DNA of 64,000 nt, taken from the NCBI GenBank assembly GCA_964550895.1, contig CAZKAP010000003.1, positions 49,082 through 113,081 on the forward strand, written 5' to 3'. A model generated the notes under the pieces. It was not told where the DNA came from and did no database searches. It saw only the letters and a program-made list of their open reading frames with translations. This stretch comes from an uncultured Flavobacteriaceae bacterium (GTDB lineage: Bacteria; Bacteroidota; Bacteroidia; Flavobacteriales; Flavobacteriaceae). A program made the translations under genes and the position numbers. Every line of letters begins with the position of its first letter. Position 1 is the stretch's first letter. Below, piece after piece: positions 11,710 to 17,784 of this stretch.

Positions 11710-12186
11710 TTAACGGTTCTCGAGCGTACAGAGTACAAAGTTACCCGTCCATCTTCGAATACGTGTGTAATTTGAGTTAAATCGAAGTCGGCCTACTGCA
11801 GGATCCATAAGCCAACATCCGTTCCTTTCCGCTTCGTACCGGACCGCATAGTGTAGCGAATTCGATGGTCCGCCCAGGATCAGGATAACGGGCATAGTTA
11901 GACAAAGTCCCTCTAGTCCAGCTTGGACCGCCCGGGGGTCAACCCACATACTCCGGGTCTGCACGCCCCATTTCTCCAAAGCAGCTTCCAAATCGATGAG
12001 ACGGGTTCCCCCGGCTCCTGTACGGCAGGAGTTATACACCTCATCGTAGCCCACCTGTATACCGAAAAACCTGAAAACCGAAACCGCACAGGCGGGTCCG
12101 CAATCGGCGCGGGCCCTTTGTCGGACTTCCACGCCGAGACGGCGAAGATCATGAGGCCTTTGGAAATTGCCACCCCATCGAAACAA
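11710..12186 (-). CDS. stand-alone peptidase C39-like (double-glycine leader / bacteriocin-processing) cysteine protease domain
   Basis: 158 aa with a TTG start; there is no in-frame ATG before residue 80. C39 signature Q23-x5-C29 (VRQRARADCGPACAVSV), H112 (SLHYAVRY) and D128-P (LMDPAVG). No ABC transporter part is attached. Confidence 0.7.
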   Translation of the reverse strand: MFRWGGNFQRPHDLRRLGVEVRQRARADCGPACAVSVFRFFGIQVGYDEVYNSCRTGAGGTRLIDLEAALEKWGVQTRSMWVDPRAVQAGLEGLCLTMPVILILGGPSNSLHYAVRYEAERNGCWLMDPAVGRLRFNSNYTRIRRWTGNFVLCTLENR

Positions 12187-12200
12187 TTGAAACCTGTTTT

Positions 12201-12428
12201 CTATTTACCGTATAAAACGAAAAAGGAAGAAACCCTGCGGTAGAACATGTATTCGAGTACCCAGCGATAAAAGGGACGGGCTATGCGGTATCGGACGGTA
12301 TTGGAATCGATCAATCGGAAGAGATAAACGCTGACATAGCGATCCCTGAGCATTTTTCGGATTGAACGGTCCTGATACGCGGGAAGATAGGACTGTTCGA
12401 AGTCATAAAAAACTGAACCTAAACGCAT
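12201..12428 (-). CDS. hypothetical protein (possible gene remnant)
   Basis: 75 aa with an ATG start. Tyr/Arg/Phe-rich with no recognisable domain. Ends 15 nt upstream of the C39 gene. Confidence 0.25.
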   Translation of the reverse strand: MRLGSVFYDFEQSYLPAYQDRSIRKMLRDRYVSVYLFRLIDSNTVRYRIARPFYRWVLEYMFYRRVSSFFVLYGK

Positions 12429-12953
12429 TAATCGTAATTCTGCTTCATCCGCAACAGATCAAAGATATAACTCTTTAAACAAAACAAGTCTGAATACTCG
12501 ACGGGAGGCTAAGAAGTTATCCACCAAAGGAACCCATCTCCGGTGTATGCTTTTGTCTCGGTTCCGAGGGCAGCGGGTTAAGCAAAAGATTGGCCAGCAT
12601 AGCGCCGGCCAATCCCCATCAGTCATGATCACAGTCTATATGATAGAGCTTCCTGCCGTAATTGAAGCTCTTCACATACAGTTCAAGTATGGCTACGGTC
12701 CAGTTCGGACGGATAAATCCAGCGCGGATATCCATCCTTTCTTCCATGGAAAGCACTCGCATATGAACCCGGCTAGTGGTCACTTACTGATGATTCATAA
12801 ATGAACCCGGTCATGGTCCCTATAAGCACGGCATCTATGGCCAGCATGACCACCAATGGAATAACCGGCAATGGTCTCAGTTCGGATTGGGCAGTTGATA
12901 CAATCAATAGTCTACGGATTTATTCTTTTCCTACTCTTTTCAGGATTTTCGGC

Positions 12954-14192
12954 TTACTCCTTGGTCGAAGCGCTTCGGGATCCCGGGAAGCCAACGACTC
13001 TTCTAAAGTAATGTCCCGGACTGTAGATTTCATTCGCCCGCATCAGATACCTAATCAGGACGATGGACAAAAGGGCGAACGGGTACAGTCGGGGTAAAAG
13101 CGAAGCGATCGTATTCTCTGTATCGCCCGGATGAATCGCTGCCTGCAGCAGTAGAGTCATCACGCCGGAGTCATAACTTTGATATACAGCGTATAACAAT
13201 CCAACAAGAAATAATGAAACCGCCAGGTAATGCAGTAAACCGAGTAGCGCAAGTAGCCGTGAATTCCCTGGATGCAGCCATATACGAGGGTTTTTAAGCC
13301 TCCTCGCCAATTCGACCCTCGCCCGTTCATTCAGCCGGTCTACTCCGGTCAGATCCGTGAGTACCCAATAGCCATCTCCCCTGACTAATGGGTTCAGGTT
13401 CCAGAGCGACCGGAGCAGGATAAGGACCGCCGCCAATTTCCCGGAACCGAAGCCCCATAACTCCGAGGCTGTAAGGAGTGCCGCGCAAAAGGCCCATTCG
13501 AAATAAATCCCCGCCAGGTTAACGTGTACCCTCTTCCGCGGACTCAAACGCCAGGCATCCGTCACATCGGAAAACATCACCGGGAACACCAGATACAACC
13601 CGCCGCCTATAATACCGGGACGCCCACCGTAGTACAGGAGGGCCGAGGCATGTCCGAATTCGTGCAACAATACCGAGCAGGCCGTGATAAGGAGTTCTGC
13701 CGGCCAATTGAGTTCTTCCGGGTCGAGCTGAACCGGATGGGACATCCAAAGACTGACAGTCAGCCATAGCACGACCATCAGCACTGCCGGCCATGCATGC
13801 AGGAAGCTGAACAGCCGGCTCGCAGCCGCCACCCGCTGCCTATCCAGAAGGGTAAACCCCCAAAGGAGATAAGGTGGAATAGTCCCCTCGGGAGCCGGAG
13901 GCGGTTCGTCTAAGAAGAGCCCCTTGTTTCGGAAGCGGGAATCGTAAATACGAAGGACATCTTCCTCTTCAAGACGAGTGCCCAGCTCGGCATTCAGCGC
14001 CGGAGCGACCTGGTGAAGGGACCTGTTCGACCGGAGGAGTCTCAGGAAAAGATAGCCTGACAGGTTCGTTTTCAAATATGTGGATGCTCCTTCTTTCCAG
14101 ACCAGCCACTTTCCCGGTCCCACGGGCTTGAACCGTACGGCAGGGTCGAGCTGTAGCTTCGGTACCGATGCCTGTTTATCCGTATAAGGCAT
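12954..14192 (-). CDS. PqqD/RRE-like domain fused to M50 (site-2-protease-like) membrane zinc metalloprotease
   Basis: 412 aa. Residues ~11-96 follow the PqqD/RRE pattern (PKLQLDPAVRFKPV..KWLVWKEGASTYLKTNLSGYLFLRLL..RSLHQVAPALNAELG..EEDVLRIYDSRFRNKGLF). The multi-TM body carries HEFGH (13650-13664) and NLNPLVRGDG (13371-13400), i.e. HExxH plus NxxPxxxxDG. The ATG overlaps the upstream gene by 17 nt. Confidence 0.7.
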   Translation of the reverse strand: MPYTDKQASVPKLQLDPAVRFKPVGPGKWLVWKEGASTYLKTNLSGYLFLRLLRSNRSLHQVAPALNAELGTRLEEEDVLRIYDSRFRNKGLFLDEPPPAPEGTIPPYLLWGFTLLDRQRVAAASRLFSFLHAWPAVLMVVLWLTVSLWMSHPVQLDPEELNWPAELLITACSVLLHEFGHASALLYYGGRPGIIGGGLYLVFPVMFSDVTDAWRLSPRKRVHVNLAGIYFEWAFCAALLTASELWGFGSGKLAAVLILLRSLWNLNPLVRGDGYWVLTDLTGVDRLNERARVELARRLKNPRIWLHPGNSRLLALLGLLHYLAVSLFLVGLLYAVYQSYDSGVMTLLLQAAIHPGDTENTIASLLPRLYPFALLSIVLIRYLMRANEIYSPGHYFRRVVGFPGSRSASTKE

Positions 14193-16050
14193 CCAGCGCG
14201 TAAATCGTTGAAACGGCTCGGCTCCGAAAGGCCTGTCCGGGCCTGGGGGTTACAAATGGGACGGATTCCCAGGAACCATCCTCGCTTTGAGTTCGAAGCA
14301 GGAAATCCCTGGCATCCCGATAAAACGGATGATGCCCATAGCCAATATCCCGCATACAAAGGGACACAAGAGCCGTTGAGAGCGGGTCAGATTCGGCCCC
14401 GGGCTGCAATCCGAAGCCTCCATCCGGATTCCGGCCTTGGTTCAGGAATTCATCCCATCGCTGTAGGCAATCTCCTTTGAATTCCCCGAGTCTGTAGAGG
14501 TACCGGCCTACCTTGTAGGTTCCGTAGGGCCAGCCCACGTACCACCGGCTGGCCCAGGCCCCCGAGGGCAGTTGTGCATTCTTCAGATAGGCCAAGGATG
14601 CAGACCGGAGGGGCTCCAGCAATAGCGGGCGGTAATCCAGCAGGACATCGTACATATTGGCCACTACCTCGGGGTCCGGACCCATACCCCAGAGGCGGCT
14701 GTTCAATTCCCGCTGCCACTGGGAATTCCTTTGATCAGCACCACCCGTGATCCAGGTCAACATTACCCCTTTACTGTCCAGACCGCAGGATGCATGACGG
14801 CTCAATATTTCGTAGCAGTACCGGTCGATCAGATCGCGCCGGCCCATTCGAAGAAAAAAACGAATGACCTGCGACAAGTCGTCTATATCCGCTGAGAGGT
14901 TAGGCAGACTGGGAAAGTAGGACCACAGGCCGACGGCATGGTCTCGCCGCTGTCTCAGGTAATAGTCCACTTCCCGTTCCAGGTAGTTTCGCATATCGGC
15001 GGATGGGTTTTCCTGTCGGGCCAGGAAATCATCGGCCAGCAAGCGGTAAAAGAGGTCTGAACTATGTATACCCGAAACCCCCCGAAATCCTTCTCCTTCG
15101 GATACGTACATAAAGTGCCTGAGACCCGGCCAATTCCTCTTGCGCTCCTCGTTCAGGAATCCAAGGCCCCGCTGCCTGTGCAGGTCATGGTCAGGACTAA
15201 GTCGACCCGGTTTATCTGCCCCATCGGAAAGGGATACCCTCAATCGGCTGTGGGCCATTTGGACATATCCCAGGGCCTGCTTGTCGTAAAAACGCAATTC
15301 CCTAAGTACCTGTGCAACTGCCCCGCGCCACTGGCCATCACCTGGAATCAGTTGCAGTGCCTGTTCAAGTTGCCCGAACGCCCGCTCGAAAATCCAATGG
15401 GCGTGCCCCTTCAAATACATCGATTTCCTCGCAGCCTCCATCTCCTTTCGGGTCTCGGGCCAGCCGTGTTTGAGCGACCAGGTATACCATACCCAGTTGA
15501 ACCGTCTGGCCGTGAAATCCTCTTCGACATCGACCAGGTCGTCATAGAGCTGCAGGGCCACGGAGAAGCTGGAATGCGATTTCAGTAAGCTCAGGTATAT
15601 CGGCCTCACCGTCTCCCGGTCCTCTGTAAGCAGGAAGAGTCCGTCCAGGGCCAGTTTAGCCAACGCTGATTTGGCCTCGGCCAGTTTGCTGAAATCGTCG
15701 AATCCCAGTTGTTTACCCCCGGCAAATGACCTTTCCGTCCTGACGGCCCATGCCATTTCGGCCTCCCTGGAGGACCACTTTGCCCAGAAGGGGCTTTCCG
15801 GGCTGAAGAGGCCATTCAGTATCGACACGGACTGACGATATGCCCCTAGCAAGGGCAGTAGGGCATCCGGATCAGCCTCATCGACCAGCCGGTCCCATTG
15901 AAGTGCAGCCTGAAAGCACTCCCTGCCGGACGCATCGAGCCGGTTTACTAACGGTCTTTCCACCTGGGGAAAAAAGTCCCTGAACAGGCTCGCGTAGTTT
16001 TGGTAATACGCGTATAATCTATTCCTCAATGGATCTGCCGGATGTGCCAT
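14176..16050 (-). CDS. terpene-synthase-like fusion protein: class I isoprenoid-synthase-like N-domain + class II cyclase / prenyltransferase-repeat C-domain
   Basis: 624 aa. The N-terminal part has DRLVDEAD (15871-15894) and ALQLYDDLVDVEED (DDLVDVEED = 15517-15543), about 117 aa apart. The C-terminal part has SADIDDLSQV (DIDD = 14878-14889) and QW-type repeats AYLKNAQLPSGAW (14554-14592), NQGRNPDGGFG and RDFLLRTQSEDGSW (14269-14310). Confidence 0.65.
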   Translation of the reverse strand: MAHPADPLRNRLYAYYQNYASLFRDFFPQVERPLVNRLDASGRECFQAALQWDRLVDEADPDALLPLLGAYRQSVSILNGLFSPESPFWAKWSSREAEMAWAVRTERSFAGGKQLGFDDFSKLAEAKSALAKLALDGLFLLTEDRETVRPIYLSLLKSHSSFSVALQLYDDLVDVEEDFTARRFNWVWYTWSLKHGWPETRKEMEAARKSMYLKGHAHWIFERAFGQLEQALQLIPGDGQWRGAVAQVLRELRFYDKQALGYVQMAHSRLRVSLSDGADKPGRLSPDHDLHRQRGLGFLNEERKRNWPGLRHFMYVSEGEGFRGVSGIHSSDLFYRLLADDFLARQENPSADMRNYLEREVDYYLRQRRDHAVGLWSYFPSLPNLSADIDDLSQVIRFFLRMGRRDLIDRYCYEILSRHASCGLDSKGVMLTWITGGADQRNSQWQRELNSRLWGMGPDPEVVANMYDVLLDYRPLLLEPLRSASLAYLKNAQLPSGAWASRWYVGWPYGTYKVGRYLYRLGEFKGDCLQRWDEFLNQGRNPDGGFGLQPGAESDPLSTALVSLCMRDIGYGHHPFYRDARDFLLRTQSEDGSWESVPFVTPRPGQAFRSRAVSTIYALDALYG

Positions 16051-17152
16051 ATATGCCTGGTTTTGGATGATCCCCTATAAGAGCCCGACCCGGATTTTCC
16101 TTTCCCAGTTGGCGATGCCAGGGCACATTGGGGTCGAGTCCCGATTTCGAATACGACAGCCCGGTGTCGTTCCCGTGATTAAACAATTCAATCTCCATCC
16201 TGTACTTAAGGAAAGAACCGGAATCGTACACCTCGCCTTCCTCAATAAATCTTACCCGTCTCAGGCTGAACCATGGATCCTTGTAGTCGATCCAGAGCTC
16301 GGTGCACTGTCGACGGAGCCTTCGGCCATGTTGTCCTCCTCCCTTTTCGATATGGGATTCGGGCAGGTACTCATAGAATATGCGGTATGCTCCATCATTT
16401 TCCTCGGGATAGAGTAGTGATCCCGATATATACGAACGCTTGCTGTCCTCGTGGCGCACGCGGAATTCGCAGGTACGATGGCTTCCCGGGCCGGACCGCT
16501 CATGCCAGGACCAAATCCAGCCCGGCCGGAACAGGAAGCCCACGGTGGTATTCAGATAAAACAGTCTGGCAATGTCCCGGTTCGGAACGAACCCCCTGTC
16601 CCAGGGACTCGTCTGAGGCGAGTATTTCAGATAGTCCAGATTGTATCCGTAGATGCTGAATTGCCTGTGCCATTTTCGCCCAGGAGCAAACCGGGTTCGC
16701 AGTCGGCTCACGGCGAACTGGGCCTGAAGCTGACGTTTAGGCATTCCATCGACCCGGAATGCTTCCCGGTAGGTCAGTAGCTGTGGTCGGGATACCCGTT
16801 TGGCACGAATCAGCCGCTGGTAAATGCTTCTGGGATGGGTGGCCACCAGGTTGACTTCGTTCAATTCCAATCGCTTGGGCCACAGATAGACCGTATCCGT
16901 CTGATTGCGCTTCATGCGGTATGCGTCTATGGATTCGAAGCCGATATGGGAAATACGGAGCCGGGGATTAGGATCGGGTATCCGGCATTGGCCCTCCTTA
17001 TCTGAAAATCGTATCCTGCCGGTTTCCCTCTCGGTGATTGCCACATTCTCCAAAGGCCGCATGCGTTCTGCATCCATGACGATCAGGCCGTATCCCTGGG
17101 TCCAAGCCGTCGAAGGCAGCAAGACCATAAGCAAAACTCGTATCCATTTCAT
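16019..17152 (-). CDS. secreted carboxypeptidase-regulatory-like (CarboxypepD_reg) domain protein, function unknown
   Basis: Start moved to ATG 17152 (MKWIRVLLMVLLPSTAWTQ signal peptide). A CarboxypepD_reg-like segment follows (GLIVMDAERMRPLENVAI...DKEGQCRI...LRISHIGFES); the rest is unassigned. Overlaps the downstream gene by 32 nt. Confidence 0.55.
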   Translation of the reverse strand: MKWIRVLLMVLLPSTAWTQGYGLIVMDAERMRPLENVAITERETGRIRFSDKEGQCRIPDPNPRLRISHIGFESIDAYRMKRNQTDTVYLWPKRLELNEVNLVATHPRSIYQRLIRAKRVSRPQLLTYREAFRVDGMPKRQLQAQFAVSRLRTRFAPGRKWHRQFSIYGYNLDYLKYSPQTSPWDRGFVPNRDIARLFYLNTTVGFLFRPGWIWSWHERSGPGSHRTCEFRVRHEDSKRSYISGSLLYPEENDGAYRIFYEYLPESHIEKGGGQHGRRLRRQCTELWIDYKDPWFSLRRVRFIEEGEVYDSGSFLKYRMEIELFNHGNDTGLSYSKSGLDPNVPWHRQLGKENPGRALIGDHPKPGIYGTSGRSIEE

Positions 17153-17186
17153 AGAAAAAGAGTGGCCCGTTCCGGGCCACCCGCAA

Positions 17187-17336
17187 TTAAAATCGAACTT
17201 TGGCGGTGAGTTCGAGGTCACCGTTAGACGGTTCGTACTGAACACCTACGTCTCCGCCGCGGATCCAGCCCATCTCGAATCGCTGTTCGAGTTCCACCAC
17301 ATCAAAGAGGTCCATCAATTCATCGGATTCATGCAT
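17187..17336 (-). CDS. candidate precursor peptide with double-glycine (GG) leader, 49 aa
   Basis: Not in the ORF track because it is under 60 aa. Runs from ATG 17336 to TAA 17187-17189: MHESDELMDLFDVVELEQRFEMGWIRGG|DVGVQYEPSNGDLELTAKVRF. The leader end EMxxIRGG matches the double-glycine consensus at positions -1, -2, -4, -7, -8 and -15. It lies 34 nt upstream of the next gene on the same strand. Confidence 0.5.
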   Translation of the reverse strand: MHESDELMDLFDVVELEQRFEMGWIRGGDVGVQYEPSNGDLELTAKVRF

Positions 17337-17353: not shown

Positions 17354-17461
17354 TTAATTAGGAATTTTGGGTAGGATGGGAATGGACGGTATGCATCCCT
17401 GCCATTCGACTTCCTGAGGCTCTGTATCCCAGGGCCAGAGCTTTCTGATTTGCTTGAACAT
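17354..17461 (-). CDS. possible 35-aa Trp/Pro-rich small ORF (very uncertain)
   Basis: Runs from ATG 17461 to TAA 17354-17356: MFKQIRKLWPWDTEPQEVEWQGCIPSIPILPKIPN. Starts about 20 nt downstream of a TAGATTTG box and stops 17 nt before the GG-peptide ATG. There is no homology evidence. Confidence 0.15.
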   Translation of the reverse strand: MFKQIRKLWPWDTEPQEVEWQGCIPSIPILPKIPN

Positions 17462-17511: not shown

Positions 17512-17784
17512 TCATCCGCCATAGAGCTCCGTCGTCTCGTCTTCATTGACGATCATCACACTGATCCGCACCTTCAGGTTGAAGTATTCCTTGTAGAAGT
17601 AGGTCTTACGGGATCGGTCGTATCCGATTCGCGCCTTGAAATCCTTCAACTGTTCGATCAGGTGGTACACCAGCCGTTCACTGATGCGCAGCCTCCCTGC
17701 GAGCTCTGTGGGACTGCCTGTACTTTCGGTTTCGATGGCCTTGTGAATAAACTGAAGCCGTTCGAGATTCCTGATGTTATTCAT
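17512..17784 (-). CDS. small winged-helix-turn-helix protein (putative transcriptional regulator)
   Basis: 90 aa. HTH pattern STGSPTELAGRLRISERLVYHLIEQLKD followed by a wing-like IGYDRSRKTYFY, resembling DeoR/HTH_11 N-terminal domains. Confidence 0.6.
   Translation of the reverse strand: MNNIRNLERLQFIHKAIETESTGSPTELAGRLRISERLVYHLIEQLKDFKARIGYDRSRKTYFYKEYFNLKVRISVMIVNEDETTELYGG

Follow-up and report, generated by a model that had tools for sequence, protein, structure and literature searches.

The window analysed here is a 64,000-nucleotide stretch of DNA from an uncultured Flavobacteriaceae bacterium (GenBank assembly GCA_964550895.1, contig CAZKAP010000003.1, positions 49,082 to 113,081). 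Its minus strand carries a gene cluster that runs from a helix-turn-helix (HTH) protein through a 49-aa open reading frame (ORF), a CarboxypepD_reg-like protein, a 624-aa enzyme, a 412-aa membrane protease and several small ORFs to a C39 peptidase and MacB-type ABC, HlyD and TolC genes (Table 1). The same gene order was found around an orthologue of the protease with 67% identity in a Flavobacteriaceae metagenome-assembled genome (MAG) of uncultured origin (locus L001), and the segment comprising the M50 gene, the small ORFs, the C39 gene and the ABC ATPase gene is kept both there and in a distant locus of the same family (L099). The 412-aa protein is the subject of this report. It probably serves as the leader peptidase in the maturation of a ribosomal natural product, and within it a presumably cytoplasmic RiPP recognition element (RRE; RiPP, peptide made by the ribosome and modified after translation) at residues ~11-92 is tethered by a proline-rich linker to a zinc protease of the site-2 type with six transmembrane (TM) segments.

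Table 1. Features of the protease gene and its cluster, in window coordinates
Feature	Positions	Strand	Evidence
RRE-M50 fusion gene, 412 aa	12954..14192	-	open ORF; NF041824 match; AlphaFold2 model
RRE/PqqD-like winged-helix domain, residues 11-92 (beta1-3, alpha1-3)	13917..14162	-	DSSP, N-domain profile, Foldseek
Pro-rich linker FLDEPPPAPEGTIPPYL, residues 93-109	13866..13916	-	translation; pLDDT dip to 82
Six-TM M50/site-2-protease body, residues 110-400	12993..13865	-	AlphaFold2 helices, hydropathy, 3b4r, SpoIVFB
HEFGH zinc-binding/catalytic motif, residues 177-181 (H177, E178, H181), near cytoplasmic end of TM2	13650..13664	-	translation, alignment
NLNPLVRGDG, residues 265-274 (N265, P268, D273 = third zinc ligand, G274), cytoplasmic end of TM4	13371..13400	-	translation, alignment
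49-aa precursor peptide, leader ELMDLFDVVELEQRFEM then GW; proposed substrate	17187..17336	-	identity to L001 copy; family leader motif
624-aa fused prenyltransferase-like (DDxxD) and class II cyclase-like enzyme	14176..16050	-	SQHop_cyclase_C, 8paj
CarboxypepD_reg-like secreted protein, probable start MKWIRV at 17149	16019..17245	-	PF13715 E 3e-4
90-aa HTH protein, first gene of cluster	17512..17784	-	HTH_11 E 0.004
Small hydrophobic ORF A, 44 aa	12773..12907	-	L099 homologue with GG leader
Small ORF B, 54 aa (47 aa if ATG 12762), GG-type leader (window RAG, L001 RGG)	12619..12783	-	conservation, codon positions
Stand-alone C39 peptidase	11710..12186	-	PF03412 E 1.9e-16
75-aa Tyr/Arg-rich ORF	12201..12428	-	conservation in L001
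35-aa ORF	17354..17461		ORF list

The original prediction had read the protein as a PqqD/RRE-like domain fused to an M50 protease and had pointed to the hidden Markov models (HMMs) PF05402 (PqqD) and PF02163 (Peptidase_M50). With the window protein itself, neither PF05402 nor PF02163 gave a match at E<=1, the Pfam scan returned only a spurious holin match (E 0.17), and phmmer against the PDB returned only chance matches to KAS II (E 0.27). Since the direct HMM checks were empty, the evidence had to come from profiles and folds, and it was relatives, profiles and folds that yielded positive results.

The full AlphaFold2 model, which was built from an alignment of 62 relatives, reached a mean predicted local distance difference test (pLDDT) score of 89.8 and a predicted template modelling (pTM) score of 0.87, with values above 90 in the N-domain. 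This domain displays a winged-helix pattern of three beta-strands (residues 19-25, VRFKPVG; 28-33, KWLVWK; 39-43, YLKTN) followed by three helices (44-54, 59-70 and 76-87), and thereby reproduces the PqqD-like layout that had been read from residues ~11-96. A profile generated from 22 N-domains of the fetched loci matched the PqqD structures 5vrd (E 5.1e-4) and 5sxy (E 9.9e-4) and then LynD (E 0.052), and five of these 22 orthologous N-domains matched PF05402 directly (best E 2.9e-5). Foldseek searches with the full model returned as best matches TbiB1 bound to a leader peptide, SpoIVFB, LynD, TigE and a lasso B1 protein, and the top 18 matches of a model of the N-domain alone (pLDDT 72) were all RiPP RREs. 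The RRE folds among the top matches comprised TbiB1 and lasso B1 (crystallised with leader peptides), LynD, TruD, TigE, ThcOx and SkfB; TbiB1 (5v1u) was superimposed on the N-domain with TM-scores of 0.57 (TMq) and 0.69 (TMt), a root mean square deviation of 2.7 A and a probability of 1.00. Identification of the N-domain as a winged helix of the RRE/PqqD type is supported by profile and modelled fold alike.

With respect to the membrane body, PF02163 was matched by 48 of the 62 relatives at E<=0.01, PqqD by three and a PaaA-like N-terminal domain family by two. The family profile matched the Methanocaldococcus jannaschii site-2 protease MjS2P (3b4r, E 0.0037) over an alignment that spans both zinc motifs and places NLNPLVRGDG on NLIPAFPMDG, and the Foldseek match to SpoIVFB (8vjm) had a probability of 0.99 and an E-value of 0.04. 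The residues H177, E178, H181, P268, D273 and G274 are invariant in the 62-member family alignment, and the zinc motifs are therefore not a product of chance. In the AlphaFold2 model HEFGH lies within helix 163-187 and NLNPLVRGDG at the end of helix 249-265, a re-entrant beta-hairpin occupies residues 195-208, and the linker stands out as a block of lower confidence with pLDDT values down to 82. The protein carries the catalytic residues and belongs, at the level of the superfamily, to the M50/site-2 proteases, an identification of its body that profiles and the modelled fold support. Translation, model and alignment confirmed the motifs, the polytopic body and the proline-rich linker of the original prediction, and its two-domain call was borne out by the profiles (5vrd and 5sxy, 3b4r), by Foldseek and by the majority of the relatives.

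Hydropathy and the model helices define six TM segments. Lysine and arginine residues (K+R) are concentrated on the side of the RRE, with 17 in the N-terminal region and 2, 8 and 4 in the loops of the same side as opposed to 0 in each of the three loops on the other side. On the basis of these counts, the positive-inside rule predicts that the RRE, the HEFGH motif in the last third of TM2 and the NLNP...DG motif at the end of TM4 are all cytoplasmic in orientation, the side on which the protease would encounter a ribosomal precursor. The question on which side of the membrane the RRE lies, raised by the original prediction, is answered by this prediction in favour of the cytoplasm.

At E<=1e-3 an exhaustive search yielded 8258 representative clusters, and 3192 remained when the threshold was E<=1e-10. 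The family members are mostly ~400 aa in length and their alignments begin at query residues 10-50, so that the two-domain design is that of a large family. Longer variants were also observed. Homologues of 540-870 aa with long N- and C-terminal extensions occur in L013-L083, mostly in Streptomyces and other Actinomycetota, and the two of these that were tested (L018 and L019) gave no Pfam match at E<=0.01. A separate family of ~700 aa joins PqqD, M50 and HlyD domains (P0020, P0023, P0008). In Tenacibaculum, the RRE-M50 protease is extended to ~690 aa by a C-terminal MauE membrane domain (PF07291; L074, 9965-12040; L014, 9941-12022); the precursors at L074 have Cys-rich cores, and no precursor ORF was found at L014. 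The combination of a MauE fusion with Cys-rich cores suggests, as judged from the sequences, a coupling to disulfide formation.

The most likely substrate of the protease is the neighbouring 49-aa precursor, as deduced from gene context and leader conservation. This peptide reads ...LFDVVELEQRFEMGWIRGG..., ends in Phe and is 100% identical in amino acid sequence to the copy in L001 (4835-4984). The two copies differ at 13 nucleotides, each of them a third codon position, and every change is synonymous, with no non-synonymous one; the protease and the 624-aa enzyme are only 67-72% identical between the two loci. This pattern points to very strong constraint on the whole peptide, the core included, as would result from extreme purifying selection. 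The leader motif FxVEELExR(L/F/Y)E(M/L) is common to small ORFs beside the protease in the window and in ~20 loci, which were chosen by their protease or cyclase gene and belong to Bacteroidota, Balneola, Acidobacteriota (Silvibacterium), Cyanobacteriota (Hormoscilla) and Ignavibacteria. In most of these precursors a Trp residue follows one to three residues past the motif, as in EMGW, EMKGW, EMKAW, ETKPW and ELCNW, and these loci, which come from four phyla, usually also encode a ChrPC-like fused prenyltransferase-cyclase. The interpretation as a leader-guided protease fits these data because the gene co-occurs across phyla with precursors of one leader motif and because RRE and active site are predicted to lie on the same side of the membrane.

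The original prediction had named both the 49-aa and the 35-aa ORF as candidate ligands of the RRE and had expected small peptides beside homologous genes. Such peptides were found at the ~20 loci just described, and the idea of a leader-guided protease serving a neighbouring peptide holds, as a prediction, for the 49-aa ORF with its conserved leader. The 35-aa ORF found no support as a second precursor: it lacks the leader motif and matches only the locus of the 67%-identical orthologue (sampled twice, as L001 and L004), and its substitutions relative to that locus are distributed over the three codon positions in an ambiguous 6/2/9 pattern. The region could equally be conserved promoter or 5' untranslated DNA. 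A multiplicity of precursors was observed in Flavobacterium resistens DSM 19382 (L009, 6333-6981), where four tandem genes combine the leader F(S)(I/V)EELExRLEM with differing Cys/His-rich cores and where a fifth precursor together with a second prenyltransferase-like gene is located 5 kb upstream.

The gene of the 624-aa enzyme overlaps the protease gene by 17 nt (stop codon TAA at 14176-14178, protease ATG at 14190-14192), an overlap with a terpene-synthase-like gene that had been noted before and was confirmed by translation. The C-domain of the enzyme matched SQHop_cyclase_C (E 3.5e-10) and the monodomain class II cyclase 8paj (E 3.9e-11); the N-domain gave no HMM match and contains a DDxxD motif (YDDLVDVEED) that was read in the sequence. 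According to a review (PMC13290415), ChrPC joins a prenyltransferase domain resembling trans-isoprenyl diphosphate synthases to a cyclase domain; the enzyme uses C10-C20 donors to prenylate an internal Trp, and cyclisation of the prenyl group follows. The cluster of the window appears ChrPC-like by this published description.

Among 80 loci fetched with the protease as query (5-member alignment), the gene immediately upstream of the protease encodes a homologue of the 624-aa enzyme in Symbiothrix, Flavobacteriales, Flavobacterium, Epilithonimonas, Apibacter and Tenacibaculum. Over all loci examined, this arrangement occurs in L005, L006, L009-L012, L074 and L102. The Epilithonimonas loci contain full-length homologues with 30% identity and the same protease downstream, a Balneola locus (L029) has the homologue downstream of the protease, and further loci, including those of Silvibacterium and Hormoscilla, contain versions with the prenyltransferase domain only. 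In the reverse direction, three of 400 other genomes in a sample of the phylum carry the cyclase-fusion gene; both full-length loci have protease and precursor nearby, and the protease is directly adjacent in one of them (L102).

The pair of leader and RRE-M50 protease also occurs with other tailoring genes (L033, L016, L003 and L051). The L051 locus contains an SQHop-like protein and a radical SAM protein, and L003 the same plus a P450. In Phocaeicola sartorii DSM 21941 (L033, 5468-12686), a radical SAM gene is followed by a Cys-rich precursor of 67 aa whose leader contains ELEDRLE, a CarboxypepD_reg-like protein of 763 aa, the RRE-M50 protease and a Wzy_C/TPR protein; no prenyltransferase-cyclase gene was detected at this locus. 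In an Ignavibacteria MAG (L016, 2784-6597), a precursor with the leader ...SLEELEKKIEF and a CC-containing core precedes an acyltransferase of the lipid-A-biosynthesis type to whose C-terminus a PqqD/RRE domain is fused, and then a TPR protein and the RRE-M50 protease, a composition compatible with a possible acyl-lipidated RiPP cluster. Since the same leader and protease stand beside differing tailoring genes, the leader tracks the protease, and the protease RRE is the best candidate for the reader of the leader motif.

Six of 150 other genomes of the same family carry the protease, and within 16-20 kb around these six genes motif-bearing precursors are encoded in five neighbourhoods (in three of them with a Trp beside the motif), and a prenyltransferase(-cyclase)-like gene occurs in four. 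This sporadic distribution and this company speak against a regulatory enzyme of the site-2 class that would use its winged helix to bind DNA or a signalling protein and would have nothing to do with the nearby peptides. Such a function might be considered since winged helices are a generic fold, HTH-type Pfam families are weakly matched by a few N-domains and canonical site-2 proteases are regulators. Every top structural match, however, is a RiPP RRE and not a DNA-binding winged HTH, the best profile matches are PqqD proteins, and no pair of an anti-sigma factor and an extracytoplasmic function sigma factor was present among the cluster genes scanned. A regulatory role was consequently rejected as very improbable.

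The leader peptidase that we favour would act in a sequence of steps, of which leader binding, cleavage site, order and export are inferred. The cytoplasmic RRE would dock the 49-aa precursor by its conserved acidic leader (LFDVVELEQRFEM), whereupon the 624-aa ChrPC-like enzyme would prenylate the Trp located two residues after the leader motif and then cyclise the prenyl group. The lipidated core may then partition into the inner leaflet, and the intramembrane zinc site facing the cytoplasm would cut between leader motif and core, presumably near the point where the motif ends, as the comparison with the daptides suggests, whose leader motif ELExMEAP runs up to position -1 (bioRxiv 10.1101/2023.03.08.531785). 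The product would be exported by the flanking MacB-type ABC, HlyD and TolC proteins.

The protein might instead be a scaffold or an export gate and not (only) a protease, with the RRE presenting the precursor at the membrane to the prenyltransferase-cyclase, whose isoprenoid donors would be membrane-associated, or with cleavage coupled to translocation as proposed for EpeP, which is thought both to cleave and to export its peptide (PMC10885120). The 17-nt overlap, which implies translational coupling with the 624-aa enzyme, the lack of a Pfam-detectable RRE in that enzyme and the existence of PqqD-M50-HlyD fusion relatives (P0020) are compatible with this view. On the other hand, the invariance of every catalytic residue speaks for proteolysis as the function under selection, the window contains separate HlyD, ABC and TolC genes, and ChrPC is described as bifunctional with no partner mentioned in the review (PMC13290415). 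We therefore regard a scaffold or gate as unlikely and the leader peptidase as the better description of the gene.

Several observations weigh against the leader peptidase and its proposed substrate. The window sequence by itself misses both the PqqD and the M50 Pfam models, and the E-values of the Foldseek matches are all >1e-3, so that the fold call was made because these matches are mutually consistent and agree with an independent profile result. Motif-bearing precursors without an adjacent Trp occur in L002/L003, L016, L023, L033, L051 and L100. As the loci were picked by protease or cyclase, the count covers leaders that accompany the protease, and a survey that began from the protease cannot show that the pairing of leader and protease is exclusive. 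Binding and cleavage are inferred for the whole protease subfamily, and the role of the daptide protease MpaP is itself assigned and not reconstituted in the text read. Finally, a second protease of the C39 type is present in the same island, and the IRGG sequence of the 49-aa peptide could be a C39 site.

The last point opens the prospect of sequential processing, with the M50 enzyme cutting the 49-aa precursor at the junction of leader and Trp and C39 cutting after IRGG, so that a short prenylated fragment or the C-terminal 21-mer would be released. The 49-aa peptide indeed contains E(-8)M(-7)xxI(-4)xGG, which is near the double-glycine (GG) consensus, the precursor in L006 has the same GWLKGG, and the module has a C39 gene beside it in the window as well as in L001, L005 and L099. 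As a general cleavage site, the GG of the 49-aa peptide had to be discarded, because it is not conserved across the precursor family, where GWIKSA, GWLKSI, GWFAGA, KGWLSI and KAWDVS are found at the corresponding place. Better C39 substrates are encoded between the two protease genes: ORF A in L099 reads MKRTLSIPEMKKVRGG and then FLPFVVILVIDATLLGFMSGYIYES..., a classic GG leader, and the L001 copy of ORF B combines L(-12), E(-8) and I(-4) with GG in its leader (...EERREIRGG), where the window copy has AG. Stepwise cleavage of one precursor by both enzymes is for these reasons judged improbable. As ORFs A and B lie by the C39 gene with GG leaders and the GG of the 49-aa peptide is unconserved, each protease probably has its own substrates, with C39 acting on ORFs A and B and not on the 49-aa peptide. 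The original prediction of a second protease in addition to C39 is thus upheld insofar as both are present in the island, and C39 is more likely to serve the two other small ORFs than the 49-aa peptide.

The two small ORFs, which overlap each other, sit between the genes of the M50 enzyme and of C39; both are conserved in L001 (9277-9565) and in L099 (8757-9010), where the order M50, A, B, C39 and ABC ATPase is kept. The substitutions in ORF B are distributed over the codon positions as 6/8/15. Judged by their sequences, ORFs A and B look like a two-peptide bacteriocin or a bacteriocin and its partner, served by C39. The adjacent 75-aa Tyr/Arg-rich ORF shares 92% identity with its L001 counterpart; third codon positions account for 23 of the 30 substitutions, and the ORF is probably a real gene, perhaps one with a role in immunity. 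At the other end of the cluster, the HTH protein is 98% identical in L001 and 58-60% identical in L006 and L099, in the same position. Homologues of the CarboxypepD_reg-like protein occupy the same position in L001, L006 and L009, and the same Pfam family is also represented in L033, L002 and L003; a secreted protein of this type is hence recurrent beside precursor or protease in many clusters (window, L006, L009, L033 and L002/L003).

Tentatively, the RRE-M50 protease and the FxVEELExRLEM leader may be regarded as a portable cassette in Bacteroidota, Ignavibacteria, Acidobacteriota and Cyanobacteriota that is reused by tailoring chemistries with otherwise nothing in common (prenyltransferase-cyclase, radical SAM and lipid-A-type acyltransferase-RRE), and in lipidated members the intramembrane site might act as a maturation checkpoint. 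If this rather doubtful proposal were true, the scissile bond would reach the zinc site only after an isoprenoid or acyl group has pulled the leader-adjacent residue into the bilayer, which offers a testable idea as to why lipidated RiPPs use an intramembrane protease. The protease is moreover a candidate leader peptidase for the heterologous production of mature prenylated peptides, and together with the ELExRLE leader it provides a compact handle for genome mining. Several uncharacterised clusters of Bacteroidota appear to be served by the same protease design.

The window protein shares with the canonical site-2 proteases MjS2P (3b4r), SpoIVFB and RseP the HExxH and NxxPxxxxDG motifs in TM helices and the re-entrant beta-hairpin. 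The accessory domains of the canonical enzymes are of the PDZ or CBS type and their substrates are membrane-anchored regulators, whereas the accessory domain here is an RRE and the presumed substrate a soluble and later lipidated peptide. The lasso peptide proteins B1 and B2 provide a parallel in which an RRE holds the leader for a protease, and the N-domain finds its best structural counterpart in TbiB1, but lasso B2 is a soluble transglutaminase-like Cys protease and not a membrane metalloprotease. M50 enzymes are listed for epipeptides and pearlins in a review of RiPP leader proteases, and the epipeptide proteins YydH/EpeP/LiaK resemble the window protein as M50 intramembrane proteases dedicated to RiPP maturation. 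Their model NF058609 matches residues 138-290 (E 1.6e-12); it differs in that its 246 positions represent the protease core only, with no match to the N-domain of the window protein, and the tailoring enzyme of that class is a radical SAM epimerase.

The closest design is that of the daptide proteases DapP/MpaP, of which MpaP is described as an RRE-dependent intramembrane peptidase with an assigned role in leader removal (Ren et al., bioRxiv 10.1101/2023.03.08.531785). Both have an N-terminal RRE and an M50 body within ~380-410 aa and are accompanied by an acidic leader of the ELE..ME type, and they differ in that the precursor here ends in Phe and the host belongs to Bacteroidota, whereas daptides end in Thr and occur in Actinomycetota and Bacillota. 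The NCBIfam model NF041824 (daptide biosynthesis intramembrane metalloprotease) matches residues 20-351, the N-domain included (E 2.6e-35), with 122.3 bits and hence below its curated cut-off of 300; the best E-value among all 62 close relatives is 1.3e-46. No daptide genes (DUF-RRE protein DapB, alcohol dehydrogenase, aminotransferase or methyltransferase) were present among the window neighbours scanned. Membership in the daptide proteases was ruled out by this score and by a neighbourhood of cyclase-like, CarboxypepD_reg-like, C39 and HTH genes. The fusion of an RRE to a site-2 protease is thus already published as DapP/MpaP, and it is the cluster context that is new. In the literature searched, RRE-fused site-2 proteases are discussed for daptides only. 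The likeness to ChrPC-type clusters, again by the description in the review, would consist in a fused prenyltransferase-like and class II cyclase-like enzyme beside a Trp-bearing precursor, and the same protease design would here serve this second, recently described class of peptides with cyclised isoprenoids on Trp.

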